Source: an uncultured Candidatus Saccharibacteria bacterium (GTDB taxonomy: Bacteria > Patescibacteriota > Minisyncoccia > Phycocordibacterales > WO2-35-19). Taken from it: a stretch of 64,000 nucleotides of DNA. Shown piece by piece: positions 986-38,947 of this stretch. The stretch lies in contig CAZAXK010000001.1 in assembly GCA_964489135.1 (NCBI GenBank), positions 20,615 through 84,614 of the forward strand, in the 5' to 3' direction. Position 1 is the stretch's first letter. Every line of letters begins with the position of its first letter. Position numbers and translations under genes: made by a program. The notes under the pieces were generated by a model. That model did not search any database. It was not told where the DNA came from and saw only the letters and a program-made list of their open reading frames with translations.

Positions 986-1018
986 CGTTAAATTTGCATA
1001 ATGGGTTATAATTGATCC

Positions 1019-2278
1019 ATGTTTGGAATTCCAATAGTGATTTGGGAGAATCTGTGGCTCGCCTTCAAAATTGTTTGGAAACTTGCCCCCATTTGGCTCC
1101 CTTTGGCTTTTGTGGTGGCTGCCGCCAAGGCATGGCTTGCGTACAAGCGAGCTGATTATTGGAACAACAAGCTTGGTTCCTTGGTACTCGAGATCAAACT
1201 CCCGCGCGACGTCTTTAAGTCGCCTCTAGCAATGGAGCTCGTCTTAAACCAGCTACATCAGACCGCGGATGAAGGCAACAACTATTTCAAGTATTGGAAG
1301 GGTCAGACCAGAAGCTGGTTCTCACTCGAGCTCGTCTCTTTCGGCGGGGAGATACATTTTTATATTTGGACCAGAAAGAAATACCGCAACGGCCTCGAGG
1401 CCTACCTTTACTCGCAATACCCCGGCGTCGAAGTGCGTGAGGTCGAAGACTATACCAAAAACTACTATTACGACCCGAACCAGCACAAGTTGTTTGCTTG
1501 TCAGTGGAAACTAGATGACCCAGACCCATATCCGATCAGCACCTATGTAGATTACGGCTTGGACAAGGACCCCAAAGAAGAGTACAAGATCGACCCGATG
1601 ACAAGCCAGCTCGAGTTCCTTGGTACTTTGCGCAAAGGCCACACGATTTGGATACAGATCATTGTGCGTGCTCACAAGAAGGAAAAAAGACTTTTGCCTA
1701 TCAACAAATGGTTTAGTGAATTTGCTCTGTTCGAGGAAGTCGACTCATGGAAGGCAGATGCCAAGGCGGAAATAGATAAAATCAGAAAAGCGCTACAGCC
1801 AGAAGGTAACACCTTCCCACGCCTCGCCACTAAGGGCGAGCAAGACAAGATGGCGGCTCTTGAACGCAGTATTGGTAAGCTCGGATTTGATGTAACCATA
1901 CGCTCTCTTTATTTTGCAAAAAAAGAAGAATATGACGCCGTCTATTTGGGTGGAATGCTCGGTAGCTTCAAGCAATACTCAGCTCTCGGCTACAATAGCT
2001 TCAAGGGTGCTGGCTGGAGCAGTACTTATAGCAACCCACCCAAAGACTGGTGGAAGCCAGATCAAGCAACACTCCTGAAGCGTGCTTTTGATGAATACAA
2101 GCTTCGCCGATTCTTCTTCTCGCCATATCGAGGCAAGTGGTATTACAGCGAACCTTTCGTCCTGAATTCCGAAGAGTTGGCCACGATCTACCACCTACCA
2201 GGGGCCGTCGCCGGCACACCAACGCTCGACCGAGTACCTTCGCGCAAGGTCGATGCTCCTTACAATCTGCCTATATGA
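1019..2278 (+). CDS. hypothetical membrane-anchored protein (N-terminal hydrophobic segment), function unknown
   Basis: 419-aa ORF with TATAAT (1007-1012) exactly 6 nt upstream of the ATG. N-terminal TM-like segment; no recognisable catalytic motif. ATGA stop/start overlap with mltG. Confidence 0.5.
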   Translation: MFGIPIVIWENLWLAFKIVWKLAPIWLPLAFVVAAAKAWLAYKRADYWNNKLGSLVLEIKLPRDVFKSPLAMELVLNQLHQTADEGNNYFKYWKGQTRSWFSLELVSFGGEIHFYIWTRKKYRNGLEAYLYSQYPGVEVREVEDYTKNYYYDPNQHKLFACQWKLDDPDPYPISTYVDYGLDKDPKEEYKIDPMTSQLEFLGTLRKGHTIWIQIIVRAHKKEKRLLPINKWFSEFALFEEVDSWKADAKAEIDKIRKALQPEGNTFPRLATKGEQDKMAALERSIGKLGFDVTIRSLYFAKKEEYDAVYLGGMLGSFKQYSALGYNSFKGAGWSSTYSNPPKDWWKPDQATLLKRAFDEYKLRRFFFSPYRGKWYYSEPFVLNSEELATIYHLPGAVAGTPTLDRVPSRKVDAPYNLPI

Positions 2279-3402
2279 TGAATTTTCTTGCTACACTTGC
2301 GCGTTTCTTGCATCTGAGAAGTGCAAAAGTTCGACTGACCGATCCGATCAAAGACCGAGTTTTGTATTTGCGCGACCGGATGGCCATTCATCCGGAAGTT
2401 ATCGTCTTACGTTTACGCTTGCTCAAACTATTCGCGCCCCTAGGCAATCACTTCTTCAAGATTCTTCTGGTTCTTGCTTTAATCATTCCTTTCTATACCA
2501 GCTTTTATATTTTCTCTTGGCGAGCACCAAGTGACTTTCCCGAGCATGCGTTGGTCACGGTAGGCAGAGGAGACAGCTTTGGCCAAATTGCCGAGGCATT
2601 CGAAAAAGCTCATGTAGTAAGGTCGGCTTCGTGGCTCAAATTCTTCGTCCGTATTACTGGTGGCGACCGGCGGGTGGTCACCGGAGATTATTATTTCCCA
2701 GAGCCGGTCAGCTTATTCCGAGTTATCCGCGTTCTCCACAAAGGAGAATTTGGGCTGATCGCAGAAAGAGTTACCTTGCATGAAGGTCTAAATTCTTTTG
2801 AGATGGCGGAGATCTTGAGCCAGTCGTTACCAGCCTTCGCAAAAGAAGAATTTTTGAAGGAAGTGACAGACAATGGTTATGAGGGCACCCTCTTTCCTGA
2901 CACCTATTTCTTTATGCCCAATACAAGACCCAAGGACATTATTCTAGCGATGCGAGAGAATTTTGCTCGCCAAATAAAGCCCTACGAGGAAGACATCGCA
3001 AAATCCGGTAAGACCCTGCAAGACCTGATAATCATGGCCTCCATAATAGAAGACGAGGCAAATAAAAATATTGAATCGAGAAGAATCGTCTCTGGTATTT
3101 TATGGAAGCGGATCCAGAAAGGAATGCCTCTACAAGTTGATGCGCCGTTCAAGTATTACAACGGCAAACATTCTTACACCCTTACCGCCGAAGATTTGAA
3201 AGAAGACCACCCTTACAATACCTATGTTCGCAAAGGCTTGCCCCCGACCCCGATCGACAACCCGAGCATCGATTCTATTCGCGCCGCGATTGCCCCAACT
3301 CACACCGACTATTTGTATTTTATGTCTGACAAACAAGGCAACATGTACTACGCCAAGGATTTTGAGGGCCACCAAGCCAATAGAGAAAAGTACTTGCGCT
3401 AG
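2275..3402 (+). CDS. mltG: endolytic murein transglycosylase MltG (YceG-like)
   Basis: Start at MMNFLATL (ATG 2275 overlaps the upstream stop as ATGA). N-terminal TM followed by a YceG domain with the characteristic YYF...GTLFPDTY...P..I.NPS motifs. Confidence 0.85.
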   Translation: MMNFLATLARFLHLRSAKVRLTDPIKDRVLYLRDRMAIHPEVIVLRLRLLKLFAPLGNHFFKILLVLALIIPFYTSFYIFSWRAPSDFPEHALVTVGRGDSFGQIAEAFEKAHVVRSASWLKFFVRITGGDRRVVTGDYYFPEPVSLFRVIRVLHKGEFGLIAERVTLHEGLNSFEMAEILSQSLPAFAKEEFLKEVTDNGYEGTLFPDTYFFMPNTRPKDIILAMRENFARQIKPYEEDIAKSGKTLQDLIIMASIIEDEANKNIESRRIVSGILWKRIQKGMPLQVDAPFKYYNGKHSYTLTAEDLKEDHPYNTYVRKGLPPTPIDNPSIDSIRAAIAPTHTDYLYFMSDKQGNMYYAKDFEGHQANREKYLR

Positions 3403-3439
3403 CAAGATTTATCAATTTTTTCTGCTATAGTGTGAATCT

Positions 3440-4513
3440 ATGAAGAAGGTTTTTGTTGGATTATCTGGCGGCGTAGATTCGGCCGTTTCTGCCGGTCTTC
3501 TAAAAGAGGCCGGTTTTGACGTGACTGGAGTTTTTATCAAGGCTTGGACCCCCGATGGCTACCCCTGTACATGGAAGGAAGACCGACGTAGTGCAATGCG
3601 AGCTGCAGCGGTGCTTGATATTCCTTTTCACACTCTCGACCTAGAGAAGGAGTACAAACGCGATGTGGTGGACTATATGATCAGAGAATACAAAAACGGA
3701 CGTACTCCAAATCCGGATGTGATGTGCAACAAAGAAATAAAATTCGGCGGATTTTTGAAGTGGGCAAGAGAGCAGGGTGCAGACTTTGTCGCCACGGGAC
3801 ACTACGCACAACGTGCTCCCTCCCCTGATCAAGGGGAGGGTGGGGTGGGGTTAAAGGAAGGGGCGGACAAGAACAAGGATCAGACCTATTTTCTTTGGAC
3901 CTTGAGTCAGGATCAATTGCGGCACACGCTTTTTCCAATCGGACATTTGCAAAAAAGTGAGGTGCGCAAATTGGCCGAAAAATTCGGCCTACCGCAAGCC
4001 ACTCGCAAAGATAGTCAGGGATTATGTTTCTTGGGGCAGATCGACATGAAAGAATTTCTCCATGATTTTATCGACTCAAAGGAAGGTAAGGTTCTCGATC
4101 TAACAGGTCAAGAGATTGGTAGCCACGACGGAGCAGTGCTTTATACTTTGGGCGAGCGACACGGGCTTAGGATCTTTAACCAGACAGACCAAAGCAAGCC
4201 GTTTTATGTGGTAAGCAAAGATATCAAGAGCAACACCATCACCGTGGCACCCCAACCTACATTTCCTGCAGCGGACATCACGCACACCTACCAACTCGAA
4301 CAGATCAATTGGATATCTGGTAAGCCACCACGAGAGAATATTGAATGTCGCTACCGTTATCGACAGCCCAAAATACCCTGTCGGGTAAACGGCGACACAG
4401 TAACATTTGAATCCCCACAACTTATCGCCTCGGGGCAATCGATTGTCTTCTACCTGCCAAAGCAAGGGCAAGACGGGGATGAAATCTGCCTAGGAGGAGC
4501 GATTATTTCGTGA
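3440..4513 (+). CDS. mnmA: tRNA-specific 2-thiouridylase MnmA
   Basis: N-terminal PP-loop SGGVDSAV. Downstream ATGHYA and CNKEIKF regions typical of MnmA. Contains a short Gly/Glu-rich insertion (GEGGVGLKEG). Confidence 0.9.
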   Translation: MKKVFVGLSGGVDSAVSAGLLKEAGFDVTGVFIKAWTPDGYPCTWKEDRRSAMRAAAVLDIPFHTLDLEKEYKRDVVDYMIREYKNGRTPNPDVMCNKEIKFGGFLKWAREQGADFVATGHYAQRAPSPDQGEGGVGLKEGADKNKDQTYFLWTLSQDQLRHTLFPIGHLQKSEVRKLAEKFGLPQATRKDSQGLCFLGQIDMKEFLHDFIDSKEGKVLDLTGQEIGSHDGAVLYTLGERHGLRIFNQTDQSKPFYVVSKDIKSNTITVAPQPTFPAADITHTYQLEQINWISGKPPRENIECRYRYRQPKIPCRVNGDTVTFESPQLIASGQSIVFYLPKQGQDGDEICLGGAIIS

Positions 4514-7222: not shown

Positions 7223-8491
7223 TTAGACCGAGAGGATTTTGCGGAATCTCTCTTCGTCTTGGTATTTGCCGACAATGGCGAGATTGAGGCGTTTGTTTTG
7301 AATTATTTCTTTGGCCACTTTCTGAATATCGCTTGCGGTGATCTTCTCGATCTCCTTCTCCATTTCCTTCGGCGATTTTATTTCTTCACGCAGAATTTCC
7401 TGGAAGCCGTAGAAGTCAGCCAAGCTGTCCGACGATTCGAGCCCGAGGTAGAGATTGCCAATGATGTAGTCCTTGGCTTTGCGTAATTCCTCACTTGGAA
7501 TTTTTTCATCCCTAATCCTCTTGAGCTCACCCAGTATGGCTTTGATACCTTCTTCTACCCGAGTAGAATCGACACCAGCCGAAACGCAAAGCGATCCGTG
7601 ATCGGTAAAGGCGTCGTTGCCCGACCGAACATAGTAGCAGATGCCGAGCTCCTCTCGCATCTTCTGAAAGAGTCGCGAGCTCATCCCGCCACCCAAGACA
7701 GTGCTCAGAACTTTGAGGGCTGTGTTCTTTTTGCTATATACGTTGTAGGATCGTACGCCGATTATGAGGTGAGTTTGGTCGGTTTCTTTGTATTTGAGCT
7801 TTACTTCCGGCTTGGTCTGAACTTCTTTGACCTTGGTTTTCTTTTTATTTTTTGTTATAGGAATTTCCTTGAATGCTTCCGCGACTTTCTTGAAAATTTT
7901 GGCGGATTGCACTTTGCCCGCGACGACGATCGTGGTCGCTTCGGCGGTGTAATGCTCTCGTCGATACTTTACAAAATCCTCGCGTCCGAAAGAACGCACA
8001 TTGGCCGGTGTGCCAGCAATGCTGCGTCCGGCCGGCTGATCACCAAAAAGCAGTTCCGCATAGACATCATAAACGCTGCGATGAGGCAGGTCCTCATACA
8101 TATTTATTTCCTCCACGATCACACCTTTCTCTTTTTCCAAATCTTCGACGGGGAAAGTCGGGTTGAGATACATGTCGGCAATAATGTCGAGCAGTTTGTC
8201 GGTATGCTTGGGGTGAGCTTTGGCCCAATAGCCGGTAACTTCTTGGCTAGTAAAGGCGTTGTTCTGCGCGCCGAGCGAATCGAATTCTCTCGATATGTCG
8301 ATCGCTTTCGGGCGCTTCACCGTACCCTTGAAGCACATGTGCTCAAGAAAGTGCGATATCCCGTTCTCTTCCTTTTTCTCATATTCCGAGCCGGCCTCTA
8401 CTAAGCTCATGACGGTTACCGATGGCGCGTCGGCGATGGGTACCACGATAATTCTCATCCCATTTTTGAGCACTTTTTTGTTGTATTTCAT
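7223..8491 (-). CDS. M16 family zinc peptidase (pitrilysin/insulinase-like)
   Basis: HFLEHM (the HxxEH zinc-binding inverted motif) near the N-terminus; ~420 aa. Start placed at MKYNKK (8491). The ORF track start at 8527 would leave only 14 bp to the divergent gene. Confidence 0.8.
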   Translation of the reverse strand: MKYNKKVLKNGMRIIVVPIADAPSVTVMSLVEAGSEYEKKEENGISHFLEHMCFKGTVKRPKAIDISREFDSLGAQNNAFTSQEVTGYWAKAHPKHTDKLLDIIADMYLNPTFPVEDLEKEKGVIVEEINMYEDLPHRSVYDVYAELLFGDQPAGRSIAGTPANVRSFGREDFVKYRREHYTAEATTIVVAGKVQSAKIFKKVAEAFKEIPITKNKKKTKVKEVQTKPEVKLKYKETDQTHLIIGVRSYNVYSKKNTALKVLSTVLGGGMSSRLFQKMREELGICYYVRSGNDAFTDHGSLCVSAGVDSTRVEEGIKAILGELKRIRDEKIPSEELRKAKDYIIGNLYLGLESSDSLADFYGFQEILREEIKSPKEMEKEIEKITASDIQKVAKEIIQNKRLNLAIVGKYQDEERFRKILSV

Positions 8492-8541
8492 AGAGAGAAG
8501 AATAATTGAAAGTACCTGCATAATCAAGTATATTTACCTCT

Positions 8542-9756
8542 ATGTATACACCATCAAAAAAGGTTTTGGAACGCTATGCGGACGTCTTAGTAAACTTCGC
8601 CCTCGCCGACGGCAAAGGTATAAAGAAAGGCGACGTGGTGCAGGTAACAGCCTCCGAATCAGCGAAGCCGTTGTACGCCGAGATCCTGCGGGCTATCTGG
8701 AAAGCCGGGGGGCACGTTGTCGGCCGATACCAGCCCGACAATGAGAAGTGGTTCCGCTTCGACCGAGAATTCTTCGAGCTCGCCGAGAGCGAGCAGGTTG
8801 AGTTCTTTCCCGCCAAGCTCATGCGTGGACAAATCGACGAGGTAGATCACTCTATTTACGTTATTTCCGAAACCGACAAAAAGTCGCTCCAAGGAGTCGA
8901 CCCCAAGAAAATTATGAAGCGAGGCCAAGCTTGGAAGCAAGCGATGGACTGGCGCAATGAGAAAGAAAACGCCGGCAAATTTACATGGACATTAGGTCTT
9001 TATGGTACCGAGGCGATGGCCAAGGAAGTCGGCATGACGCAGAAAGAATACTGGCAACAAATCATCAAGGCCTGCTTTTTGGACCAAGCCAATCCGGTCG
9101 CTGAATGGAAGAAGGTCTTCGCCCAAATCGAAACATACCGCCGTAAGCTCGACCGACTGCAAATCGAAAAGCTTCATGTCGAAGGGCCCGACGCCGACCT
9201 TTGGGTCAAGATAGGGGAGAAACGATCTTGGAAAGGCGGGAGTGGCAGGAATATTCCGAGCTTTGAAATATTTACTTCGCCCGACTGGCGCGGCACCAAT
9301 GGCTGGATCCGCTTCAACCAACCGCTCTATCGCTACGGCAACCTGATCACTGGTATCGAGCTCGAGTTCAAGGATGGCAAAGTGGTCAGAAGCAAGGCCA
9401 AAACCAACGAAAAGGTTTTGCAGGCCATGATCGCAACCGAAAATGCCGACAAGGTGGGCGAGTACTCGCTCACCGATCGCCGATTTTCTCGCATAACGAA
9501 ATTCATGGGCGAAACTTTGTACGACGAAAACGTTGGCGGACCGTTCGGCAACACCCACATCGCACTCGGCAACGCTTACCACGACTGCTTTGAAGGCGAC
9601 CCGAGCAAGGTGAGCAAGAAAGAGTGGGAGAAGCTTGGATACAACTCCTCCTCAGTCCATACCGACATCATCTCAACCGCTCCGCGCACCGTTACCGCCT
9701 ATCTCCCAAACGGTAAAACCAAAATAATTTATAAAGACGGCCAGTTCGTTTTGTAG
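8542..9756 (+). CDS. M29 family aminopeptidase (AmpS/PepS-like)
   Basis: Full-length similarity pattern to thermophilic aminopeptidase S / aminopeptidase T family (N-terminal VNFAL..GD.V.V and C-terminal GNTHIALG/HTDI motifs). Confidence 0.8.
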   Translation: MYTPSKKVLERYADVLVNFALADGKGIKKGDVVQVTASESAKPLYAEILRAIWKAGGHVVGRYQPDNEKWFRFDREFFELAESEQVEFFPAKLMRGQIDEVDHSIYVISETDKKSLQGVDPKKIMKRGQAWKQAMDWRNEKENAGKFTWTLGLYGTEAMAKEVGMTQKEYWQQIIKACFLDQANPVAEWKKVFAQIETYRRKLDRLQIEKLHVEGPDADLWVKIGEKRSWKGGSGRNIPSFEIFTSPDWRGTNGWIRFNQPLYRYGNLITGIELEFKDGKVVRSKAKTNEKVLQAMIATENADKVGEYSLTDRRFSRITKFMGETLYDENVGGPFGNTHIALGNAYHDCFEGDPSKVSKKEWEKLGYNSSSVHTDIISTAPRTVTAYLPNGKTKIIYKDGQFVL

Positions 9757-10234: not shown

Positions 10235-10696
10235 ATGAAAATCACCATTTGTGGCAGTATTGCATTTTATAAGGAAATGGAGGAAACGCGAGACAAGCTA
10301 ATTAAGCTTGGACACGAAGTCAAAATCCCTGAGCTCGCCATGGAAGTCCCCGAAGAATATGGGGGAGGAAAGAAGGTATACTTTGGTCAATATATAGAAG
10401 ATAACGGAGGGATAGACGCCTTCAAGCCAGAGCACAAGTTGTGGAGTTTGAAGGAAAGCGCAATCAAGGACCATTTCGAAAAGATTGATTGGGCTGATGC
10501 AGTACTTATAGTTAATCCCGAAAAAAGAGGAGTATCTGGTTATGTAGGAGGAAATACTTTGATTGAAATTGGTGTAGCATTCTACACAAAAAAGAAAGTA
10601 TTTATTTTGAATGACGTGTCAGCTACTCTTTCATATAAACAGGAGATACTCGGTATGAAGCCAATTGTCCTAAATGGCGATTTGGGTAAAATATAA
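10235..10696 (+). CDS. nucleoside 2-deoxyribosyltransferase-like (Ndt/DNPH1-fold) protein
   Basis: MKITICGS...ADAVLIVN...GYVGGNTLIEIGVAFYTKKKVFIL resembles the Rossmann-like Ndt/Rcl family with a conserved Glu in the GxTxxEIGxA context. Six nt after the NUDIX gene. Confidence 0.5.
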   Translation: MKITICGSIAFYKEMEETRDKLIKLGHEVKIPELAMEVPEEYGGGKKVYFGQYIEDNGGIDAFKPEHKLWSLKESAIKDHFEKIDWADAVLIVNPEKRGVSGYVGGNTLIEIGVAFYTKKKVFILNDVSATLSYKQEILGMKPIVLNGDLGKI

Positions 10697-10698
10697 AA

Positions 10699-11472
10699 AT
10701 GAAATTAATTACACTAAACACTTGGGGTGGGAGAGCGGGCAAAGAAGGATTGCTCCAATTTTTTGCAGAGCACAGGAATATCGATATATTCTGTCTTCAA
10801 GAAATATGGTCAGCGCCATATGAGCACCTAGAAGGACAACTCGCCGGAGGACTGCGGATCGATAATTCTAGGGTTATGACGTACGGAATGCAAGAAATCT
10901 CTGGCCTTCTTGCGGATGAGTTCAACGCATTCTTCAACCCTAATCATGGCGATCATTATGGCCTTATGATGTTGGTACGCAAGAATCTTAACGTAGTGGC
11001 AAAGGGAGAAGTGTTTGTATACAAAGAAAAAGGTTACGTGGAAACATGGGATGTCGGTGATCATGCAAGAAATATTCAATACTTAACGTTGAATATTAAC
11101 GACCAACCACTTACAGTTATGAATTTCCACGGTTTATGGAACGGGAAGGGAAAAATAGACTCGGAAGATAGAATAGATCAATCGAAAAAGATAGTCGACT
11201 TTCTCAAGTCATTGAATGGAGATTGCGTTTTTGCCGGCGACTTTAATTTGTTGCCAGACACAGAGAGTATGAAAATAATTGAATCTGCGGGTCTCAAGAA
11301 TCTTGTGAGAAATTACGGTATAACTTCGACCAGAACCTCGATTTACAAGAAGCCAGAAAAGCATGCTAGCTACGTGCTCGTTTCTGATAATATAGAGGTA
11401 AAAGATTTTAGAGTATTACCAGACGAAGTATCAGACCACTCACCACTATTTTTAGATTTTGAGTTAAAATAA
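10699..11472 (+). CDS. endonuclease/exonuclease/phosphatase (EEP) family protein
   Basis: LNTWGG...CLQE N-terminal motif, GDFN and SDHSPL C-terminal motifs of the EEP fold. Three nt after the previous gene. Confidence 0.75.
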   Translation: MKLITLNTWGGRAGKEGLLQFFAEHRNIDIFCLQEIWSAPYEHLEGQLAGGLRIDNSRVMTYGMQEISGLLADEFNAFFNPNHGDHYGLMMLVRKNLNVVAKGEVFVYKEKGYVETWDVGDHARNIQYLTLNINDQPLTVMNFHGLWNGKGKIDSEDRIDQSKKIVDFLKSLNGDCVFAGDFNLLPDTESMKIIESAGLKNLVRNYGITSTRTSIYKKPEKHASYVLVSDNIEVKDFRVLPDEVSDHSPLFLDFELK

Positions 11473-11477
11473 TAACT

Positions 11478-13358
11478 ATGACATCTGCAGAAGTTAGAAA
11501 GAAATATTTGGAATTTTTTGAGAAGAGGGGACACAAAGTGATCCCGAGCGCTCCTTTGGTGCCTGAGAACGACCCGACCACACTTTTTACAGCATCTGGT
11601 ATGCAACCAATGGTGCCTTATCTTCTTGGACAAAAGCACCCTCTCGGTAAAAGAATTTCTGACTCACAAAAATCATTTAGGACAGTGGATATCGATGAGG
11701 TTGGAGATAATCGCCACACCACATTTTTTGAAATGCTCGGTAATTGGTCACTTGGTGATTATTTCAAAAAGGAACAAATCGAATGGATGTTTGAATTTTT
11801 AATTGATGAAGTTGGTATCGACCCAAATAGACTTTATGTCACAACCTTTATAGGAGATGAGGACAACAAAATTCCGAAAGACACTGAATCTGCACAAATA
11901 TGGAAATCTCTTTTTGCAACCAAAGGAATAGAAGCAAAAGAAGTTGAGATTGGAAGCGAAGAAAACGGTTACAAGGTCGGTATGCAAAATGGAAGAATTT
12001 TTTATTATGATGTAAAGAAAAATTGGTGGAGCAGGGCAGGAACACCTGCAAATATGCCAGCTGGCGAACCTGGGGGTCCAGATTCAGAAATGTTTTATGA
12101 ATTTACTGATGTTGCCCATAATAAAGAATTTGGTGAGCATTGTCATCCAAATTGCGATTGCGGAAGGTTTTTGGAAATTGGAAATAATGTGTTTATGGAA
12201 TACATCAAAAATTCTGACGGCACATTTTCAAACCTACCGCAACAAAATGTTGATTTTGGCGGCGGTTTAGAACGTCTGGTGATGGCTACAAGTAACTGTC
12301 CAGATGTAATAGAGGTAAATCATGCGCCAATTATTGCTTACCTTGAAAAAGCTTCGGGTAAAAAATACAAACAAAATCAAATAGAGACGAAAGCATTCCG
12401 TGTAATTGCGGATCATATGAAAGCCGCGACATTTTTAATATCAGACGGTGTACTCCCATCAAATACCGATAGAGGTTATTTTGTCAGAAGACTAATACGC
12501 CGAAGTGTAAGATTCGCTGATTCGTTAGGAATAAAGGAAAATTTACTTTCAGAGATTGTCTACCCAGTTGCAGAAATGTATAAAGATTCTTATCCGGACG
12601 TTAGTCAGAAAATAAAAATTATATCTGAAGAGATTAAATTAGAAGAAGAAAAGTTTAGGAATACTCTCGAAAAAGGTTTGAGGGAATTTGAAAAGGGCAC
12701 TGATCCATTTGTTCTCTTCACCTCCTACGGCTTTCCATTTGAGCTGACTCTCGAACTCGCCAAAGAGAAGGGAATGAAAATAGATGAGGAAAAGTTTAAA
12801 AAAGATTTGGAAGCGCACCAAGAGCTTAGCCGTGCCGGAAGCGAGCAAAAGTTTAAAGGCGGGCTCGGGGACACTAGCGAAATGTCGGTCAAGTATCACA
12901 CTGCTACACACCTGCTTCACAAGGCGCTCCGCGAAGTGCTCGGGGAGCATGTGGAACAAAAGGGTAGCAACATTACTCCCGAAAGACTCCGCTTCGACTT
13001 TTCTCACCCCCAAAAAATGACTGATGATGAGAAGAAGAGGGTTGAAGATATTGTCAATCAGAAAATTGCCGAGGATTTGCCAGTCCAAAATATTGTCTTA
13101 CCGAAAGAAGAGGCACTCCAGACCGGCGCGCTACATTTCTTCGGCGAGAAGTACGGCGACCAAGTATCTGTCTATTGTATAGGAGAGGATCTCGAAACCG
13201 CTTACTCAAAAGAATTTTGTGGGGGACCCCACGTTGAGAGAACTGGCGATCTAGCTCGATCGAGCAACCCTTCGACAAGCTCAGGGTTAAAATTTTCAAT
13301 TTTAAAAGAAGAAGCCGTTGCACAAGGGATAAGGAGGATAAAAGCAGCGCTCGAATAA
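11478..13358 (+). CDS. alaS: alanyl-tRNA synthetase, short form lacking C-Ala domain
   Basis: FFEMLGNWSLGDYFK signature and HCHPNCDCGRF zinc motif. Only 626 aa, against ~870 aa in typical bacteria. Confidence 0.9.
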   Translation: MTSAEVRKKYLEFFEKRGHKVIPSAPLVPENDPTTLFTASGMQPMVPYLLGQKHPLGKRISDSQKSFRTVDIDEVGDNRHTTFFEMLGNWSLGDYFKKEQIEWMFEFLIDEVGIDPNRLYVTTFIGDEDNKIPKDTESAQIWKSLFATKGIEAKEVEIGSEENGYKVGMQNGRIFYYDVKKNWWSRAGTPANMPAGEPGGPDSEMFYEFTDVAHNKEFGEHCHPNCDCGRFLEIGNNVFMEYIKNSDGTFSNLPQQNVDFGGGLERLVMATSNCPDVIEVNHAPIIAYLEKASGKKYKQNQIETKAFRVIADHMKAATFLISDGVLPSNTDRGYFVRRLIRRSVRFADSLGIKENLLSEIVYPVAEMYKDSYPDVSQKIKIISEEIKLEEEKFRNTLEKGLREFEKGTDPFVLFTSYGFPFELTLELAKEKGMKIDEEKFKKDLEAHQELSRAGSEQKFKGGLGDTSEMSVKYHTATHLLHKALREVLGEHVEQKGSNITPERLRFDFSHPQKMTDDEKKRVEDIVNQKIAEDLPVQNIVLPKEEALQTGALHFFGEKYGDQVSVYCIGEDLETAYSKEFCGGPHVERTGDLARSSNPSTSSGLKFSILKEEAVAQGIRRIKAALE

Positions 13359-13413
13359 ATTCTTTTTCCACACAAAATTTTATTTGCAACTTAAAAGGTT
13401 GTATAATCGGACT

Positions 13414-23080: not shown

Positions 23081-23092
23081 TATAATAAACTC

Positions 23093-23488
23093 ATGAAAAA
23101 ATATTATTTTGAAAATATCGAGGAGGCCACGAAAGAGAACGACAACTTCCGCAAGGTCGTCTTTACTGGTCCACATAGCCAAGTGGTGCTTATGTCGCTT
23201 TTACCCGGCGAGGATATCGGAGCAGAAGTTCACACAGTTGACCAATTCTTCCGAATTGAAGCCGGTGAAGGCAAGGGGATTGTCGACGGCGAAGAATTTG
23301 ATGTTAGCGACGGCTCAGCCGTGCTCGTACCAGCCGGACTTGAGCACAATTTCATCAACACCGGATCAACCGAGCTCAAGCTCTACACCATCTACTCGCC
23401 AGCCAATCACATAGACGGTCGAATCCACAAAACCAAATCCGAAGCAATGTCCGACACCGAAGACGAAGAGTTTGGGCATAGCAATTAG
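23093..23488 (+). CDS. cupin domain protein
   Basis: Start at MKKYYF (ATG 23093), 6 nt after TATAAT 23081-23086. Cupin motifs G..HTVDQFFRIEAG.G and VLVPAGLEHNF. The ORF track start at 22850 runs through the GC-rich non-coding-looking block. Confidence 0.7.
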   Translation: MKKYYFENIEEATKENDNFRKVVFTGPHSQVVLMSLLPGEDIGAEVHTVDQFFRIEAGEGKGIVDGEEFDVSDGSAVLVPAGLEHNFINTGSTELKLYTIYSPANHIDGRIHKTKSEAMSDTEDEEFGHSN

Positions 23489-24996: not shown

Positions 24997-25036
24997 AATG
25001 AATGGTTTTTAAAAATTAAGCTCTTATAATACGAAC

Positions 25037-26692: not shown

Positions 26693-26701
26693 AATGGGCG
26701 A

Positions 26702-28357: not shown

Positions 28358-28381
28358 CTCGCTTTTTGTATCATTGGCTAT

Positions 28382-29329
28382 ATGAAAACCATATTCTCCG
28401 GAATCAAGCCGACTGGACGCCCACACTTGGGCAACTATTTTGGCATGATGCGAGAGCATTTATCGCTGCAAAATGAAGGTTTGGTATACGCATCAATCGT
28501 CGACTATCATGCTCTCAACTTTATTCAAAACGCCGAGGAGATGCACACGCTTACCCGCGAGCTCATCGTCGACTACCTCGCACTCGGCTTCGACACCGAA
28601 AAACATATCCTCTTCAAACAGTCCGACGTCCCAGAGCACACCGAGCTTGCTTGGATATTTGATACCATCACCACCGTCCCTTACCTCAAACGCGCTCACG
28701 CTTACAAAGACGCAGTCGCCAAAGGTGGCGAGGAAGATGTAAGTGTAGGCACATTCAATTACCCAATGCTCATGGCGGCGGATATATTGCTTTATGACAC
28801 AGACATAGTGCCAGTAGGGCAGGACCAGAAGCAGCATGTTGAATTTGCCCGCGATACGGCCGAGAAATTTAACAGAATATATGGTGAGACATTCAAACTT
28901 CCTGATGTGAAAATAATCGAAGGAGTAGAAGTAGTCCCTGGTACTGACGGGCGCAAGATGAGCAAGAGCTACGGCAACACCATCCCACTATTTGCTACCG
29001 ATGAGGAGATTGTCGAAAAAGTGATGAGTATAGTCACAGACTCGAGCGGCGACCGACCGGAGAATGTGTACGCCATCCACAAACTATTTAAATTGGAATC
29101 TGAGCTCGCTTCAGTGTACGAAGAAAACAAAGGCAAGTATAAAAATCTAAAAGAAATATTGATCGAAGATATCAAGAACTTCATCGCTCCGCTTAGAGAG
29201 AAGAGGGGGGGAATAGCCAAGGACGACGCTTTGATAGCTAGAGTAATAGAATCAGGCAAAGAAAAAGCCCGCGCCAAGGCGAGCGAAAAGATGCAGGAGG
29301 TAAAGAGAGCTATCGGTGTTTTGAGTTAG
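28382..29329 (+). CDS. trpS: tryptophanyl-tRNA synthetase
   Basis: Class I motifs: HIGH-like GIKPTGRPHLGNYFG and KMSKS. Confidence 0.9.
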   Translation: MKTIFSGIKPTGRPHLGNYFGMMREHLSLQNEGLVYASIVDYHALNFIQNAEEMHTLTRELIVDYLALGFDTEKHILFKQSDVPEHTELAWIFDTITTVPYLKRAHAYKDAVAKGGEEDVSVGTFNYPMLMAADILLYDTDIVPVGQDQKQHVEFARDTAEKFNRIYGETFKLPDVKIIEGVEVVPGTDGRKMSKSYGNTIPLFATDEEIVEKVMSIVTDSSGDRPENVYAIHKLFKLESELASVYEENKGKYKNLKEILIEDIKNFIAPLREKRGGIAKDDALIARVIESGKEKARAKASEKMQEVKRAIGVLS

Positions 29330-29448: not shown

Positions 29449-29483
29449 TTGACACCATAAATCATAGTCAATATAATGTCAAG
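29449..29483 (+). promoter_or_regulatory. consensus sigma-70 promoter giving a leaderless transcript of the ABC exporter gene (TTGACA-N17-TATAAT-N6-ATG)
   Basis: TTGACA 29449-29454, 17-nt spacer, TATAAT 29472-29477, ATG at 29484. Confidence 0.55.
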
Positions 29484-31265
29484 ATGCACGAACAAAAATT
29501 TTCCAAAGTAGGCATCAGCGATGTCCTCAAATATCTTTGGCAAGCCACCATTCCTCAAAAGTGGGGATTTTTCTTTACCGTGTTCGGCTTTGCTGTCTCG
29601 AGCATAATCTCGGTTATAGTTCCGCTAATCTACAAAAAATTCTTTGATTTACTAGCATTAAACACAAGCAAGGATCTCCTGACTCCTCAATTGATGGAGA
29701 TTATTTTTGTCGTCTTCGCCCTTCACTCAGTCGTCTGGATCCTGTTCAGAACCGCAATGACGACCCTCAACCAAGTAGAAGCCAGAACAATGGCCCGTAT
29801 TAGGCAGATGTCTTTCGACTACATGATCAGACATTCATATTCCTTTTTCAGCAACAACTTTACCGGTTCTTTGGTCCAAAGAGTGGGCAGATTTAGCCGA
29901 TCCTTTGAGCGCCTCTATGACATGCTGGTTTTCAACGTCATCCCGCTCGCTATAAACATTATTGGTGTAATCATCGTAGTGTACTTCCAAGAACCCGTTA
30001 TCGCCTATATTATCCTCGGCTGGATATTGATCATCTTCGCCTTCAACTTTTTCTTCCAGCGCTGGAAACTCAAATACGACCTCTTGGCCACCAAGGCAGA
30101 CACAGCGACAAGTGCTGCGCTTTCTGATGCTATCTCAAACCAGAACACTATCATGTCTTTCGCCGGCTTCGAAAAGGAATCGGCCAATTTCAAAAAGGTT
30201 ACTCTCGACCAATCCGAAAAACAAAGTCGATCTTGGGATCTCTCGGTGATAAAAGATGCGGTCCAGCAGGGGCTCATGGTTGTGGTCGAGTTTGCCATCT
30301 TCTACTACGCCATAAAATTTTGGGAGAGGAATCTCATAAGTATTGGAACGTTTGTCCTCATACAGGCCTACATAATTGGACTCGCCAACCGACTTTGGGA
30401 CTTTGGCAGAATTATCAGAAACATCTACGAGAGCTTTGCTGATTCGAAGGAGATGGTAGAAATACTGGAAACCCCATACGAAATCAAAGACATCCCGAAC
30501 GCGCGCAAGCTTGAGACAAAAGTCGGTCATATCAGCTTCAAGAATGTTTCGTTTGCCTTCAACGAGACCCGCAACGTGATCGAAAATATCAATATCGAAA
30601 TAAAAGGCGGGGAGAAGGTGGCCCTAATCGGCCCATCGGGAGCCGGCAAATCAACCTTCGTGCGGCTGCTCTTGCGAATGTATGATGTCGCCTCAGGCCA
30701 AATCGAGATCGATGGTCAAAATATAAAAGAGGTCACTCAAGAGAGTTTGCGACGTGAGATCAGTCTGGTCCCGCAAGACCCGATCCTCTTCCACCGGACA
30801 CTTATGGAAAACATCCGCTATGGCAGGGAAGAGGCGAGTGATGAAGAAGTGATCGAGGCCTCACGACTCGCACACTGTGATGAGTTTATCGATGTTTTGC
30901 CCGAGAAATACAACACCTTTGTCGGCGAGCGCGGTATCAAACTTTCTGGTGGCGAAAGACAGAGGGTTGCGATTGCGAGAGCAATTTTGAAGAATGCCCC
31001 AATACTGATCTTGGATGAAGCCACCTCAAGTCTTGATTCTCACTCAGAACACCTCATTCAAGATGCGCTCGACAAATTGATGCAAGACAAGACAGTGATC
31101 GTCATTGCCCATCGACTCTCGACCATCAGAAAAATGGACCGAGTAATCGCCATAGACAACGGACAAGTGATCGAAGAGGGAAGCCACGAAGAGTTGCTCG
31201 CCCGCGAGCACAGTCTGTACAAAAATCTTTGGAACCTCCAAGCCGGCGGCTTCTTGCCGGAATAG
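29484..31265 (+). CDS. ABC transporter, fused permease/ATP-binding exporter (MsbA/type I exporter-like)
   Basis: N-terminal 6-TM domain, then an NBD with Walker A GPSGAGKST, signature LSGGERQRVAIARA, Walker B ILILDEATS and H-loop. Confidence 0.85.
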   Translation: MHEQKFSKVGISDVLKYLWQATIPQKWGFFFTVFGFAVSSIISVIVPLIYKKFFDLLALNTSKDLLTPQLMEIIFVVFALHSVVWILFRTAMTTLNQVEARTMARIRQMSFDYMIRHSYSFFSNNFTGSLVQRVGRFSRSFERLYDMLVFNVIPLAINIIGVIIVVYFQEPVIAYIILGWILIIFAFNFFFQRWKLKYDLLATKADTATSAALSDAISNQNTIMSFAGFEKESANFKKVTLDQSEKQSRSWDLSVIKDAVQQGLMVVVEFAIFYYAIKFWERNLISIGTFVLIQAYIIGLANRLWDFGRIIRNIYESFADSKEMVEILETPYEIKDIPNARKLETKVGHISFKNVSFAFNETRNVIENINIEIKGGEKVALIGPSGAGKSTFVRLLLRMYDVASGQIEIDGQNIKEVTQESLRREISLVPQDPILFHRTLMENIRYGREEASDEEVIEASRLAHCDEFIDVLPEKYNTFVGERGIKLSGGERQRVAIARAILKNAPILILDEATSSLDSHSEHLIQDALDKLMQDKTVIVIAHRLSTIRKMDRVIAIDNGQVIEEGSHEELLAREHSLYKNLWNLQAGGFLPE

Positions 31266-33057: not shown

Positions 33058-33270
33058 AAGTAAAGGGCCCTGGTGGGAGTGTCGACGGGGATCATGTCCG
33101 ACGCTTACCAGGGCCCAAGGAGGTCTCCTGCGTACGGGTGCGGCCGGAGGAACCGCGGACCCCGTGCTGGGGAAAGGAGACCATCAGATTGATTGGATCT
33201 GACATAAGGATTGCACAACAAAAAACCCCTGTCAAACGGAAAAAAGGGGAGGCGGTGTGGTAAAATAAGG
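33058..33270. ncRNA. candidate structured ncRNA: GC-rich multi-hairpin intergenic block between aspS and scpA (class undetermined)
   Basis: Perfect 10-bp stem GGGCCCTGGT...ACCAGGGCCC (33073-33124). Perfect 8-bp stem GGTCTCCT...AGGAGACC enclosing GCGGCCGGAGGAACCGCGG. Further hairpins CAGAT/ATCTG and CCCCT/AGGGG. GC far above local background. No ORF. Confidence 0.25.
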
Positions 33271-33274
33271 AACA

Positions 33275-34012
33275 ATGGAAACTGATTTCAAAGTCAAAGT
33301 GGGCGAATTTGAGGGCCCACTCGATCTTTTGCTCGACCTCATAGAAAGGCGCAAACTGCATATTAGCAACGTGTCGCTCTCGCAGGTAGCCGACGAATTT
33401 CTCGAGCACATCAAAAGACACGAGGAGTTCCCCCTAGGCGACAGTGCAGAGTTTATCTTGATCGCCTCGACTCTGCTTCTTTTAAAATCCAAGTCACTTT
33501 TGCCCAATCTCGAGCTTACACCCGAAGAAGAGGGGAGTATCGAAGATCTAGAAGAGCGCCTGCGCGAATACCAGAAATACAAAACCTTGGCGGTCGCTAT
33601 CCGCCGGATGTTTGGTAGCTTTCTTTTCTTCCCTCAAGAAAGCAAGACTCGCACAGTCGTCTTTGCTCCAACGGAAGAAATCGAAGTAGCGAGTCTACAT
33701 GCGCATCTACTCAGAGCTTTGCAGAACTTGCCCAAGCCGGCCGTTTTGCCCAAGGTTAGAGTAGAAAAAATAATCAGTCTAGAAGAGATGATCGATAGCT
33801 TATCAGATCGAATTCAAAAAAGTTTTAAGATGAGCTTCAGAGATTTTGCTGGCAAAGGTGTGGGCGACAGAGAAGGTAAAATCAACTTGATTGTCGGCTT
33901 CCTTGCCATGCTCGAGCTCGTCAAACGCGGGGTGGTGCGGGTCAATCAAGAAGCTCATTTCGGCGACATCGAGATGGAGAGTGAAAATATAGCCACTCCA
34001 ACGTATAATTAA
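33275..34012 (+). CDS. scpA: segregation and condensation protein A
   Basis: FEGPLDLLLDLIERRKLHISNVSLSQVADEFL is the canonical ScpA N-terminus. Confidence 0.85.
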   Translation: METDFKVKVGEFEGPLDLLLDLIERRKLHISNVSLSQVADEFLEHIKRHEEFPLGDSAEFILIASTLLLLKSKSLLPNLELTPEEEGSIEDLEERLREYQKYKTLAVAIRRMFGSFLFFPQESKTRTVVFAPTEEIEVASLHAHLLRALQNLPKPAVLPKVRVEKIISLEEMIDSLSDRIQKSFKMSFRDFAGKGVGDREGKINLIVGFLAMLELVKRGVVRVNQEAHFGDIEMESENIATPTYN

Positions 34013-34017
34013 CACCA

Positions 34018-34566
34018 ATGGAACAAAAGCTAGAGGCCATCCTTTTTTATAAGAACGAACCAGTAGAGGTGAGCCGGCTCGCGCACCTTTTGCAACAGAG
34101 CGAGTCGGAAGTAATAGAAGGCCTAAAGCGACTCCAAACTTCGCTTAAAGAGCGGGGGATTTGCCTCATTCTTACCGATACAGAAGCAAGTCTTGCGACT
34201 GCTCCCCAAATGACCGAACTCATCGAGCAAATAGCCAAGGAAGAAATGAGTCGGGAAATAGGCAAAGCCGGACTCGAAACCCTCGCCATAATCCTTTATA
34301 ATAGCCAAGGAATAAGCCGAAGGAAGATTGATTTCATTAGGGGAGTCAATTCTTCCTTTATAATACGCAACCTTTTGACACGCGGACTTATCGAAAGGTC
34401 CGAATCCAGGGATGATCAGAGGGGATTTATTTATAAGCCCACTTCTTTGTTATTGGCCCATCTCGGGATAAAGGCGCTTGCCGAACTTCCGGAATTCGAG
34501 GTATTGGAGCAAGAGCTTCATGAGGCAGTCGATCGCATGGAAAGTGAAGAAAAAGAGACAAATTAA
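34018..34566 (+). CDS. scpB: segregation and condensation protein B
   Basis: LEAILFYKNEPVEVSRLAHLL and a second winged helix (EQIAKEEMSREIGKAGLETLAIILYNSQGISRRKIDFIRG). Confidence 0.85.
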   Translation: MEQKLEAILFYKNEPVEVSRLAHLLQQSESEVIEGLKRLQTSLKERGICLILTDTEASLATAPQMTELIEQIAKEEMSREIGKAGLETLAIILYNSQGISRRKIDFIRGVNSSFIIRNLLTRGLIERSESRDDQRGFIYKPTSLLLAHLGIKALAELPEFEVLEQELHEAVDRMESEEKETN

Positions 34567-36609: not shown

Positions 36610-36631
36610 TGGTTTGTGTTAGAATAATTGC

Positions 36632-37762
36632 ATGCCGAAAGGCCGAGAAAAAATAAATAGACCTTTTTTGTTCCTGACAATTCTTCTGGCGGTTGGCGGT
36701 TTTTTTATTTTTAGCTCGGCCTCCTTGGGTATCCTTGCGCAAAATCCTCTCAAGTTTTCGAGCGTCGCATTTAGCCAACTTTTCTTAGGATTGTTCCTAG
36801 GGTCAATCGCTTGTCTACTCACAGCACGGATCGACTACCATATTTGGAAAAAGTTTTCTATATTCATTTTTATTTTTTCTATTTTGATAACACTCCTTGT
36901 TTTCATACCACAACTCAGCTTGCCACACGGCGGAGCCAATCGCTGGATTGATCTTGGGGTCATAACCTTTCAGCCCTCAGAGTTGCTTAAGCTCGGTTTT
37001 ATTATCTACTTCGCCGCTTGGGGTTCGGCCTTCAAACAAAAAATCGGAACTTTCAATTGGGGACTTTTGCCCTTCATTATTTTGGTATCGATTGTGGGAG
37101 TTGTCCTTTTGGCCCAGCCGGATACCGACACTTTCGCCGTTATCGTGTTTTCGGCCTTGGCCATGTATCTCTCCGCGGGTGCAAAATGGAAACACATCCT
37201 GACGATCCTAATTTTCGGGGTAGTGTGCCTCGCCGGACTCGCCTTTATGAGGCCCTATGTCATGCAACGTATTACTTCCATGCTCAAGCCAGCCGAAAAC
37301 ACTTTAACCACAAGTTACCAACTACGTCAATCGCTCATTGCCGTCGGCTCGGGCGGTGTCTGGGGTAGGGGATTCGGCCAAAGCGTTCAGAAATTTGCAT
37401 ATCTACCAGAACCAGTCGGCGACTCTGTCTTTGCTGTGGCGGCCGAGGAATTCGGCTTTGTCGGGGGCAGTGCTATCATGCTCACTTTTGTTTTGTTTGG
37501 CCTTTACGGACTCAAGATCGCCTCTGGCGCACCAGACGAATTCGGTAGACTTCTCTCGATCGGCATTGTTATACTTATTGTGTCGCAGGCCTTTGTAAAT
37601 ATAGGGGGGATGATCGGCGTTTTACCCCTTACCGGGATCCCTTTGCCATTTATTAGCCACGGGGGGACGGCATTATTTATTACACTTGTGGAGGCCGGCA
37701 TCGTAATGAACATTTCCCGCTACTCTAAACAGATTCGACCATTAAAAAATAAGGAAAATTGA
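36632..37762 (+). CDS. ftsW: SEDS family peptidoglycan glycosyltransferase (FtsW/RodA)
   Basis: 10-TM SEDS topology with conserved QPSELLK, and the GGMIGVLPLTGIPLPFISHGGT C-terminal motif. Confidence 0.9.
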   Translation: MPKGREKINRPFLFLTILLAVGGFFIFSSASLGILAQNPLKFSSVAFSQLFLGLFLGSIACLLTARIDYHIWKKFSIFIFIFSILITLLVFIPQLSLPHGGANRWIDLGVITFQPSELLKLGFIIYFAAWGSAFKQKIGTFNWGLLPFIILVSIVGVVLLAQPDTDTFAVIVFSALAMYLSAGAKWKHILTILIFGVVCLAGLAFMRPYVMQRITSMLKPAENTLTTSYQLRQSLIAVGSGGVWGRGFGQSVQKFAYLPEPVGDSVFAVAAEEFGFVGGSAIMLTFVLFGLYGLKIASGAPDEFGRLLSIGIVILIVSQAFVNIGGMIGVLPLTGIPLPFISHGGTALFITLVEAGIVMNISRYSKQIRPLKNKEN

Positions 37763-37778
37763 AAATTTAGAAACAATT

Positions 37779-38912
37779 ATGAAAATAGTTTTTACAGGCG
37801 GAGGTACGGGGGGACACTTTTATCCGATCATTGCCATTATTGAATCCATAAAGAAGATCTGCAAAGAAAAGAAAATTATCACTCCGAAGATGTACTTCTT
37901 TTCGGTTTCGCCCTATAGCCAAGGCATTCTTTATGACCACGATATTGAATTCAAGAAGGTGACTGCTGGTAAAATAAGACGGTACTTCTCGATAAAAAAC
38001 TTTTTTGACCTCTTCAAAACTTTGTGGGGATCAATCAGCACCTTTTTCGACCTGTTCGACATTTTTCCCGATGTAGTCTTTGGTAAGGGAGGATATGCGA
38101 GCTTCCCAACGTTACTTGCGGCGAGAATTCTGCGTATCCCAGTTTTCATTCACGAATCGGATTCGACCCCTGGCTTGGTAAATAAATGGGCTGGTCATTT
38201 TGCCAAGCGCATTGCCGTTTCCTACAAACAAGCCACCGCCTTCTTCCCAGAAAATCGCACCGCCTACACGGGCCAACCGATACTTGCTGAACGGCTTACG
38301 CCGCTAACCGAAGGAGTTTTTGAATTTTTCGACTTTCATGAAAGCACTCCAACCATTTTTATCATGGGCGGCTCTCAAGGGTCAGAAACTCTCAATAACA
38401 TTGTCATGGATTCTCTGCCCGAATTGGTAAAGAACTTTCAAATAATCCACCAAACCGGTGAGAACAATATCAGCGTAATAAAAGAATCAGCTGACGCCAT
38501 ATTGCTCGACAGTCCGAACAAAAAGAATTACAAACCTTTCGGCTACCTCAGCTCACTTGAGATGAGTATGGCCTCCGGTTGCGCCTCACTCGTAGTGAGC
38601 CGAGCGGGCTCTACCATATTTGAGATTGCTTCGTGGGGCAAGCCGGCCATCATCGTTCCCATCCCCGAAAAGACGAGCCACGACCAGACCAAGAACGCTT
38701 ATGCCTACGCCTCGACCGGCTCCGCTTCAGTCATAGAAGAAGACAACCTCAGACCCAACATCTTCCTCTCCGAAATTCACCGAATTCTCGAAAACAAAGA
38801 TTTGTATCAAAAGATGTCTGTCGCCGCCAAGGCCTTCTTTAAGCCCGACGCTGCTGACATGATCGCAAAGGAATTGCTGTCAATCGCTCTAGGACACGAG
38901 AATTTGGGATAG
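37779..38912 (+). CDS. murG: undecaprenyldiphospho-muramoylpentapeptide beta-N-acetylglucosaminyltransferase
   Basis: MKIVFTGGGTGGHFYP N-terminal G-loop and C-terminal GT28 domain. Confidence 0.9.
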   Translation: MKIVFTGGGTGGHFYPIIAIIESIKKICKEKKIITPKMYFFSVSPYSQGILYDHDIEFKKVTAGKIRRYFSIKNFFDLFKTLWGSISTFFDLFDIFPDVVFGKGGYASFPTLLAARILRIPVFIHESDSTPGLVNKWAGHFAKRIAVSYKQATAFFPENRTAYTGQPILAERLTPLTEGVFEFFDFHESTPTIFIMGGSQGSETLNNIVMDSLPELVKNFQIIHQTGENNISVIKESADAILLDSPNKKNYKPFGYLSSLEMSMASGCASLVVSRAGSTIFEIASWGKPAIIVPIPEKTSHDQTKNAYAYASTGSASVIEEDNLRPNIFLSEIHRILENKDLYQKMSVAAKAFFKPDAADMIAKELLSIALGHENLG

Positions 38913-38947
38913 GTGAGGAGGGCGATAATTTGTGCTAAAATGAGTTT

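Follow-up and report, generated by a model that had tools for sequence, protein, structure and literature searches.

A -10-like box fixed at the start codon suggests widespread leaderless transcription in a genome segment of the Patescibacteria

Bacterial leaderless genes have an accepted sequence signature, a -10 (Pribnow) box placed 6-8 nucleotides (nt) from the start codon (PMC6028130, PMC3160421). Such genes have been called "TA-led" (PMC3160421) or GeneMarkS-2 group C (PMC6028130), and the signature affects 20-40% of genes in Actinobacteria and Deinococcus-Thermus (PMC6028130, PMC3160421). It is cited in PMC6028130 as having been validated by differential RNA sequencing (dRNA-seq) in Mycobacterium tuberculosis and Deinococcus deserti. 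Here we describe a similar arrangement in a 64,000-nt stretch of contig CAZAXK010000001.1 (the window; G+C 46.5%), which comes from an uncultured, ultra-small bacterium. Box spacing, AUG starts and the lack of Shine-Dalgarno (SD) sites give the window the sequence-level features by which the TA-led or group C family is recognised. In a non-exhaustive search of literature pairing 'leaderless' with Patescibacteria, candidate phyla radiation (CPR) or Parcubacteria, the phenomenon was not found reported, and the matches were only method citations or concerned YchF.

The Actinobacteria (M. tuberculosis, Streptomyces) resemble the window in having TAnnnT 6-8 nt upstream of the start, a weak or absent -35 element, about 25-40% of genes or operons of this type, and no SD site at these genes (PMC6028130, PMC3160421). 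Their leadered genes, however, use SD sites, whereas those of the window do not; GTG is common on their leaderless mRNAs, whereas the window signal is found at ATG only; and their genomes are GC-rich, whereas the genome studied here is small and moderately AT-rich. In D. deserti and Deinococcus-Thermus, a majority or large minority of mapped transcripts is described in PMC6028130 as leaderless, with the -10 element immediately upstream of ATG. That conclusion came from dRNA-seq and N-terminal proteomics, whereas the window case is inferred from sequence, and Deinococcus retains SD-led genes. Mycoplasma pneumoniae is similar in its reduced genome, with about 8% SD genes and about 16% leaderless-like transcripts (PMC10568206), but belongs to an unrelated phylum and has a lower leaderless fraction than that proposed for the window (about a third of genes).

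Two further groups share the scarcity of SD sites. The SD-scarce Parcubacteria (Campbellbacteria, Wolfebacteria and others) belong to the same broad lineage as the window; CCUCC is lost in about half of Parcubacteria, and 2-5% of genes have SD sites (PMC9297842, PMC10783764). The papers on these organisms describe the missing pairing between SD and anti-SD, but not a -10 box fixed at the start codon (PMC9297842, PMC10783764). Bacteroidetes (group B; Flavobacterium johnsoniae) likewise have mRNAs without SD sites, and are A-rich upstream of starts (PMC6847099, PMC6028130). Their signal differs in standing before all genes, including operon-internal ones, and in not being a promoter, whereas the window box is gene-specific and has sigma-70 flanks.

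The best matches to the DnaK protein of the window (93-78% identity) were Patescibacteria/CPR metagenome-assembled genomes (MAGs), namely Zambryskibacteria, Paceibacterota and some loosely labelled Saccharibacteria. Judged by these matches, the source organism is a member of the CPR/Patescibacteria, in the Paceibacteria (Parcubacteria) group and near Zambryskibacteria. A comparison set of 80 loci (L001-L080, 1.29 Mb in total, L001 being the closest relative) was assembled from the DnaK search. Among the closest DnaK relatives, many records carry the name 'uncultured Candidatus Saccharibacteria', and a few Gammaproteobacteria or Bdellovibrionales; these labels look unreliable, as DnaK identity places the loci among Zambryskibacteria/Paceibacterota MAGs. 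Throughout, a strict box is TAnnnT with at least 5/6 matches to TATAAT, and the spacer is the number of nucleotides between the end of the box and the start codon.

The original prediction held that at least eight genes of the window have a near-consensus -10 hexamer ending exactly 6 nt before ATG. All eight hexamer/ATG pairs are present at exactly the predicted positions (six TATAAT and two TAAAAT, each followed by 6 nt and ATG), and the TTGACA reported 17 nt upstream of the ABC-exporter box forms a perfect TTGACA-17-TATAAT (29449-29477). The eight sites are as follows.

1007-1021, plus strand: TATAAT-N6-ATG, hypothetical gene (419 amino acids, aa); stop in frame 3 nt before ATG, no alternative upstream start, no Pfam match.
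13402-13416, plus strand: TATAAT-N6-ATG, conserved hypothetical gene (458 aa); strict box at spacer 6-9 kept in 12/15 orthologues, flanks diverged.
19131-19145, plus strand: TATAAT-N6-ATG, grpE (Pfam GrpE); strict box at spacer 5-9 in 14/39 orthologues, no alternative upstream start.
23078-23095, plus strand: TGT-TATAAT-N6-ATG (extended -10), cupin (131 aa; Pfam Cupin_2); same architecture in the L001 orthologue.
25025-25039, plus strand: TATAAT-N6-ATG, histidine kinase (Pfam HisKA+HATPase_c); ATG is the first start codon of its open reading frame (ORF).
26690-26704, plus strand: TAAAAT-N6-ATG, Pif1-like helicase (Pfam PIF1), lower confidence; TTGTCC 17 nt upstream, AAA_19 profile from residue 3.
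29449-29486, plus strand: perfect TTGACA-17-TATAAT-N6-ATG, ABC exporter (Pfam ABC_membrane+ABC_tran); 12/12 promoter match, ATG the first start in the ORF.
38933-38950, plus strand: TGC-TAAAAT-N6-ATG (extended -10), gltX (Pfam GluRS); stop in frame 9 nt before ATG.

The pattern TAWAAT-N6-ATG occurred 11 times on the two strands of the window, against 1.22 +/- 0.99 (maximum 4) in 100 dinucleotide shuffles, so the enrichment on which the prediction had been staked is there. When spacers of 0-15 were scanned, only spacer 6 was raised, with 9+2 matches; the other spacers gave 0-3 with both strands summed, and as many as 5 at spacer 14. An ORF of 131 aa or more begins at ten of the 11 matches. Starts were then chosen blind to the motif, as the first ATG in 60 long ORFs that do not overlap, with the expectation drawn from 1,624 other ATGs. 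A strict box stood at spacers 6, 7 and 8 in 12, 3 and 5 of these genes (20/60 in all), where about 0.15 would be expected per offset, and spacer 5 was empty. A count free of gene models, in which a strict box had to be followed by a start codon opening at least 100 codons, gave 12, 4 and 6 at the same spacers for ATG. A spacer peak was looked for with GTG, TTG and CTG in the same count and was absent, these codons remaining at background level.

Chance and base composition could in principle account for the pattern, if AT-rich spacers and TAA or TGA stops beside starts generated TAnnnT-like strings. Some boxes do take in the stop codon of the upstream gene, which then doubles as part of the promoter: TAA (26690-26692, the kinase stop) lies in TAAAAT, and TGA (50235-50237) serves as TGn. 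TAAAAT at spacer 6 also holds an in-frame TAA. The observed count was, however, reached by no dinucleotide shuffle; at the six perfect TATAAT sites with spacer 6 the TAA is out of frame, and spacer 5 is empty; and the promoter flanks and orthologue conservation described below would not arise by chance. This explanation is thus largely refuted, and we regard it as scarcely tenable. The architecture of box and start codon goes far beyond chance and concerns about 20-25 genes of the window, on both strands. The figure of eight was therefore an understatement: all eight stand where they were placed, and the starts at 10699 (plus) and 62103 (minus) had been overlooked. The hexamers in the window were TATAAT, TAAAAT, TAGAAT, TACAAT, TATAGT, TATATT and TATCAT. 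The further sites are given here in order of spacer.

10687-10701, plus strand: TAAAAT-N6-ATG, Exo_endo_phos protein, lower confidence; box falls in upstream coding sequence.
36617-36634, plus strand: TGT-TAGAAT-N6-ATG, FtsW/RodA; Pfam assignment and box.
50220-50237, minus strand: TGA-TAGAAT-N6-ATG, HlyD-like protein; TGn is the TGA stop of the upstream gene.
52207-52224, minus strand: TGC-TACAAT-N6-GTG, FtsX-like permease; GTG start, less certain.
62101-62115, minus strand: TAAAAT-N6-ATG, 1707-aa Laminin_G/PG-binding protein; among the 11 TAWAAT-N6-ATG matches.
8506-8544, plus strand: TTGAAA-17-TATATT-N7-ATG, M29 aminopeptidase; divergent M16 peptidase ATG at 8521.
11465-11480, plus strand: TAAAAT-N7-ATG, alaS; box in 6/17 orthologues.
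28369-28384, plus strand: TATCAT-N7-ATG, class I Trp/Tyr-tRNA synthetase; box at spacer 6-8 at 9/20 orthologous loci, mostly TGnTAnnAT.
63480-63498, minus strand: TGC-TACAAT-N7-ATG, MazF/PemK-like toxin; extended -10.
2261-2277, plus strand: TACAAT-N8-ATG, YceG/MltG; box within upstream coding sequence.
3423-3442, plus strand: TGC-TATAGT-N8-ATG, mnmA; profile position 1 aligns to residue 2.
33258-33277, plus strand: TGG-TAAAAT-N8-ATG, scpA; Pfam ScpA.
34004-34020, plus strand: TATAAT-N8-ATG, scpB; Pfam ScpB.
45794-45810, minus strand: TATAAT-N8-ATG, hypothetical gene (171 aa); box.

The ATGs that follow the boxes appear to be true starts, because in-frame stops lie upstream and family profiles begin near residue 1. 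At most sites the stop is 3-42 nt upstream with no intervening start codon, and the profiles start within the first 2-6 residues. For gltX, the next possible start would cut off the conserved N-terminal PSPTG motif region. Pfam bore out the gene labels GrpE, Cupin_2, HisKA+HATPase_c, PIF1, ABC_membrane+ABC_tran and GluRS, and named further box genes as YceG, MnmA, M29 peptidase, AlaRS, ScpA, ScpB, FtsW/RodA and Trp/Tyr-tRNA synthetase, together with the HlyD-like, FtsX-like and MazF-like proteins and the 1707-aa Laminin_G/PG-binding protein. Two start codons had been moved in the original prediction. The change from 13384 to 13414 agrees with all 15 of 15 orthologues, which align from residue 1, and with a public gene call of an identical 458-aa product. 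The change from 22850 to 23093, before the cupin gene, is supported by the L001 orthologue, where stop codons in frame closely precede its TATAAT-N6-ATG. The cupin start differs between two public assemblies of this organism (131 aa in one, 212 aa in the other), because the reading frame of the cupin gene stays open through the spacer that separates it from dnaJ. The organism also occurs in sequencing runs SRR12762303 and SRR12762304. The spacer (22820-23092, plus strand) is 273 nt long, is richer in G+C (53.5%), is predicted to be highly structured (-84 kcal/mol) and has no Rfam match; its L001 equivalent (about 13180-13476) carries a 55-nt tandem duplication instead. One candidate box, TATACT ahead of the start of the M16 peptidase at 8521 (minus strand), was set aside, as its spacer is 5 nt and an ATG at 8491 fits Pfam equally well. 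The candidate starts of the divergent M16 (minus) and M29 (plus) genes are 20 nt apart (8491-8544), and their -10-like TATACT and TATATT overlap (8527-8534).

To characterise the box, we aligned the flanks of 178 boxes at spacers 6-8 from the window and its relatives, using positions that had played no part in the selection, and took 10,969 hexamers of the same definition as control. An extended -10 element was evident, with T at -15 and G at -14 each at a frequency of 0.52 (controls 0.33 and 0.19). At the canonical 17-nt spacing, T at -35, T at -34 and G at -33 reached 0.52, 0.49 and 0.35 (controls 0.30, 0.34 and 0.18). Within the hexamer, T at positions 1 and 6 and A at position 2 were fixed and the middle was variable, which is the sigma-70 pattern. 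Taken site by site, TGn was found at 8/25 window sites, and a -35 element of at least 5/6 matches at only 2/25. At the level of sequence, the window sites resemble mycobacterial promoters, being of the -10 or extended -10 type. A pyrimidine at -1 with a purine at +1 was tried as an additional promoter signature and was uninformative: a pyrimidine was present at 79% of spacer-6 sites versus 67% elsewhere, and T at -1 is common before all genes.

The same hexamers occur where no start codon follows closely, at variable distances (35-70 nt) upstream of the leadered genes dnaK, dnaJ, corA and subtilase. Two such sites serve as contrasts, and a third site stands before a tRNA gene.

19700-19772, plus strand: dnaK, TTGAAA-17-TATAAT with a leader of about 35 nt and no SD; box at spacer 5-9 in only 5/79 orthologues.
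45895-45983, plus strand: subtilase, perfect TTGACA-16-TATAAT with a leader of about 50 nt and AAGGAGG; sole strong SD in the window.
63601-63622, minus strand: tRNA-Gly(ccc), TGC-TAGAAT 13 nt ahead of the mature 5' end; here the box precedes a non-coding gene.

From the last of these, tRNA-Gly(ccc) (63529-63600, minus strand) would be made as a pre-tRNA with a 5' leader of only about 7 nt, because the box lies 13 nt before the mature end.

These observations bear on a different view of the hexamer, as a non-SD ribosome-binding or translation-enhancer element of the Bacteroidetes A-rich/TAAAA type (group B), acting on leadered or polycistronic mRNAs. An organism that uses almost no SD sites, has A/T-rich regions upstream of all genes and often carries the box at very short gaps would be a natural setting for such an element. 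An enhancer would not, however, explain the sigma-70 pattern of the hexamer, its TGn and -35 TTG flanks, its presence before a tRNA gene, or the identical box 35-70 nt upstream of leadered genes. The distribution among orthologues is also against it. As the intergenic gap is ambiguous and a poor guide to operons in a compact genome, a test per orthologue was used in its place. A strict box at spacer 5-9 was found in 12/15 orthologues of the 13414 gene, 9/20 of the Trp/Tyr-tRNA synthetase gene, 14/39 of grpE and 13/55 of dnaJ, in each case with diverged flanks. It was rare before infA (1/25), rpsM (2/32), rpoA (1/34), the S9-like gene (1/40) and dnaK (5/79); overall it stood before 1-11% of the orthologues of infA, rpsM, rpsK, rpoA, the S9-like gene and dnaK. 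A ribosome-binding signal is disfavoured because the box-poor, operon-internal ribosomal-protein genes, as well as rpoA and dnaK, would need one too. We therefore consider this view very improbable, and the box is better read as a promoter element.

SD sites were sought as the core GGAG or GAGG 4-18 nt upstream of starts, with the region from -48 to -34 as control. The core was not enriched in the window (2/56 genes versus 6/56 in the control region), and across all loci it was found at 94 versus 67 (control) of 1,271 genes. Between box and start there can be no SD site, because 6-8 nt leave no room for one, and the claim that the eight genes lack SD sites was correct not only for them but for nearly the whole window. 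The sole strong site is the AAGGAGG of the subtilase gene, whose start is at 45981. Where a gene has no box, the sequence upstream of it is A/T-rich. Only 48% of Parcubacteria have a detectable anti-SD motif (PMC9297842), and Campbellbacteria and Wolfebacteria are among the "SD-scarce organisms lacking CCUCC" (PMC10783764). The lack of SD enrichment here agrees with these published 16S analyses, and it appears from the sequences that SD-led initiation is essentially unused in this group. The subtilase gene (45895-47975, plus strand), with AAGGAGG 7 nt from its ATG, is an outlier in this SD-free context and is possibly a recent acquisition.

The architecture extends to the relatives of the source organism. 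Among 1,251 genes of the 80 loci, a strict box was found 70, 46, 42 and 32 times at spacers 6, 7, 8 and 9, over a baseline of about 13. The fraction of genes with a box ranged from 0 to about 33% per locus; the highest values came from the window (20/56) and some close relatives, and low ones from the Moraniibacteria- and Magasanikbacteria-type loci, which are more distant. Box fraction and SD-core frequency per locus showed a weak negative correlation (Spearman -0.32, p = 0.006).

The canonical -10 hexamer occupies positions -12 to -7. A spacer of 6 nt would therefore place +1 on the A of ATG, and spacers of 7-8 nt allow a leader of 0-2 nt. On this basis we propose that the housekeeping sigma-70-type RNA polymerase would recognise a -10 element (TAnnnT), often extended by TGn and usually with a weak -35, that ends 6 nt, or less often 7-8 nt, before the ATG, so that +1 would be the A of ATG. 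The resulting 5'-AUG transcript would be translated without SD pairing; by analogy with other leaderless systems, the ribosome may be recruited by binding of 70S, or of 30S-IF2-fMet-tRNA, to the 5'-terminal AUG. The remaining genes would have A/T-rich leaders, likewise without SD sites. With the genome so compact, many promoters would fall between very closely spaced genes or within the final codons of the gene upstream, whose stop codon is sometimes re-used. The widespread leaderless transcription proposed in the original prediction is supported by the ATG-specific spacing, the TGn and -35 flanks, the conservation in orthologues and the lack of SD enrichment, the starts themselves being read from sequence. 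It is likely that about a third of the genes of the window are expressed as leaderless or near-leaderless mRNAs (5' untranslated region of 0-2 nt), with almost no use of SD sites.

Several points weigh against this reading. Both the transcription starts and the mode of ribosome recruitment are inferred, the position of +1 coming from promoter geometry. The -35 hexamer is poor (2-4/6) at most sites of the window, and a two-hexamer promoter scan of the window was not enriched over shuffles (30 versus 22.7, 33 versus 26.0 and 22 versus 23.4), only its top matches being of use. The 3' end of 16S rRNA was sought for its anti-SD in the window and the 80 loci and none was present, Rfam finding only a tRNA. 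An in-frame TAA lies inside TATAAT at spacer 8 as well as inside TAAAAT at spacer 6, and because of it these two combinations are favoured in a test that takes the first ATG; this bias touches neither the pattern counts nor the six TATAAT sites at spacer 6. At 10699 and 26702, TAAAAT shares sequence with the final codons or the stop of the gene before it, and these two boxes are individually doubtful because that sequence partly explains the hexamer. In L001, GGTAAAATA is kept as coding sequence though the 10699 gene is missing there. Finally, the box is as frequent at gaps of less than 15 nt (6/16 in the window) as at long gaps, and at short-gap genes it may be incidental or only an internal promoter. 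Its frequency at short gaps implies that many promoters lie within the last codons of the upstream gene, and that some genes may be co-transcribed.

This last point leads to a mixed regime, in which the boxes would be real but act as secondary internal promoters, longer polycistronic transcripts dominating and leaderless isoforms being a minority. Eleven of the 25 window genes with gaps below 40 nt carry a box, several boxes lie inside upstream coding sequence, and terminator-like hairpins were not clearly enriched between box genes in the window, all of which such a regime would accommodate. Without SD or another defined signal, however, internal starts on polycistronic mRNAs would have no mechanism of start selection, and the sharp ATG-specific spacing together with the conservation in orthologues implies selection for +1 at the A of ATG. 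We consider a mixed regime unlikely, and prefer leaderless or near-leaderless expression as the main mode for the box genes.

Some of the box genes have further features of their own. The ABC-exporter promoter (29449-29483, plus strand) is bracketed by an inverted repeat, TTGACA...TGTCAA, which could be an operator site; the opposite strand there carries a mirror-image promoter-like TTGACA-17-TATGGT. A hairpin, CUCCCUC...GGAGGGAG (19083-19116, plus strand; -13 kcal/mol), overlaps the -35 region of the grpE promoter. Its GGAGGGAGATTAGA part is kept in L001, and it matches neither the CIRCE nor the HAIR consensus. It may act as an operator in the heat-shock response or terminate the ribosomal-protein operon upstream. 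The 1707-aa protein (56980-62115, minus strand) has a Laminin_G_3 domain and two peptidoglycan-binding domains, and is probably a giant surface or host-interaction protein. The MazF/PemK-like toxin gene (63096-63498, minus strand) comes directly after the tRNA gene, and no antitoxin gene was identified upstream. MazF of E. coli has been linked to the generation of leaderless mRNA.

The arrangement described here is the extension to a new lineage of a mechanism known from Actinobacteria, Deinococcus, mycoplasmas and archaea, and is not a new principle. A broader proposal, which we offer tentatively and would at present rate below even odds, is that in Paceibacteria without SD/anti-SD pairing the recognition of a 5'-terminal AUG would be the main specific means of start selection, with promoters compacted into the last or stop codons of upstream genes and many genes transcribed singly and leaderless. 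Such a regime may be linked to the reduced ribosome of the CPR, in which bS21 and uL1 are frequently lost and bS1 is short. If true, it would give bacteria an equivalent of the haloarchaeal regime, which is leaderless and SD-independent, and it predicts that the TA-led fraction rises where the anti-SD has been lost.

A large part of bacterial diversity belongs to the CPR/Patescibacteria; almost none of them have been cultured, and what is known of them comes only from automatic annotation. Should one in three of their genes be leaderless and SD sites go unused, as proposed for the window, gene callers trained on SD sites will misplace starts, as the 131-aa and 212-aa versions of the cupin gene illustrate. 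How far genome compaction can go would be indicated by promoters that borrow part of their sequence from the stop codon of the gene before them. Leaderless initiation, if true, would also set a positive mechanism beside the published lack of an anti-SD in many Parcubacteria (PMC9297842, PMC10783764), and would bear on how reduced ribosomes initiate translation. Promoters in CPR genomes would then be readable directly from gene starts.

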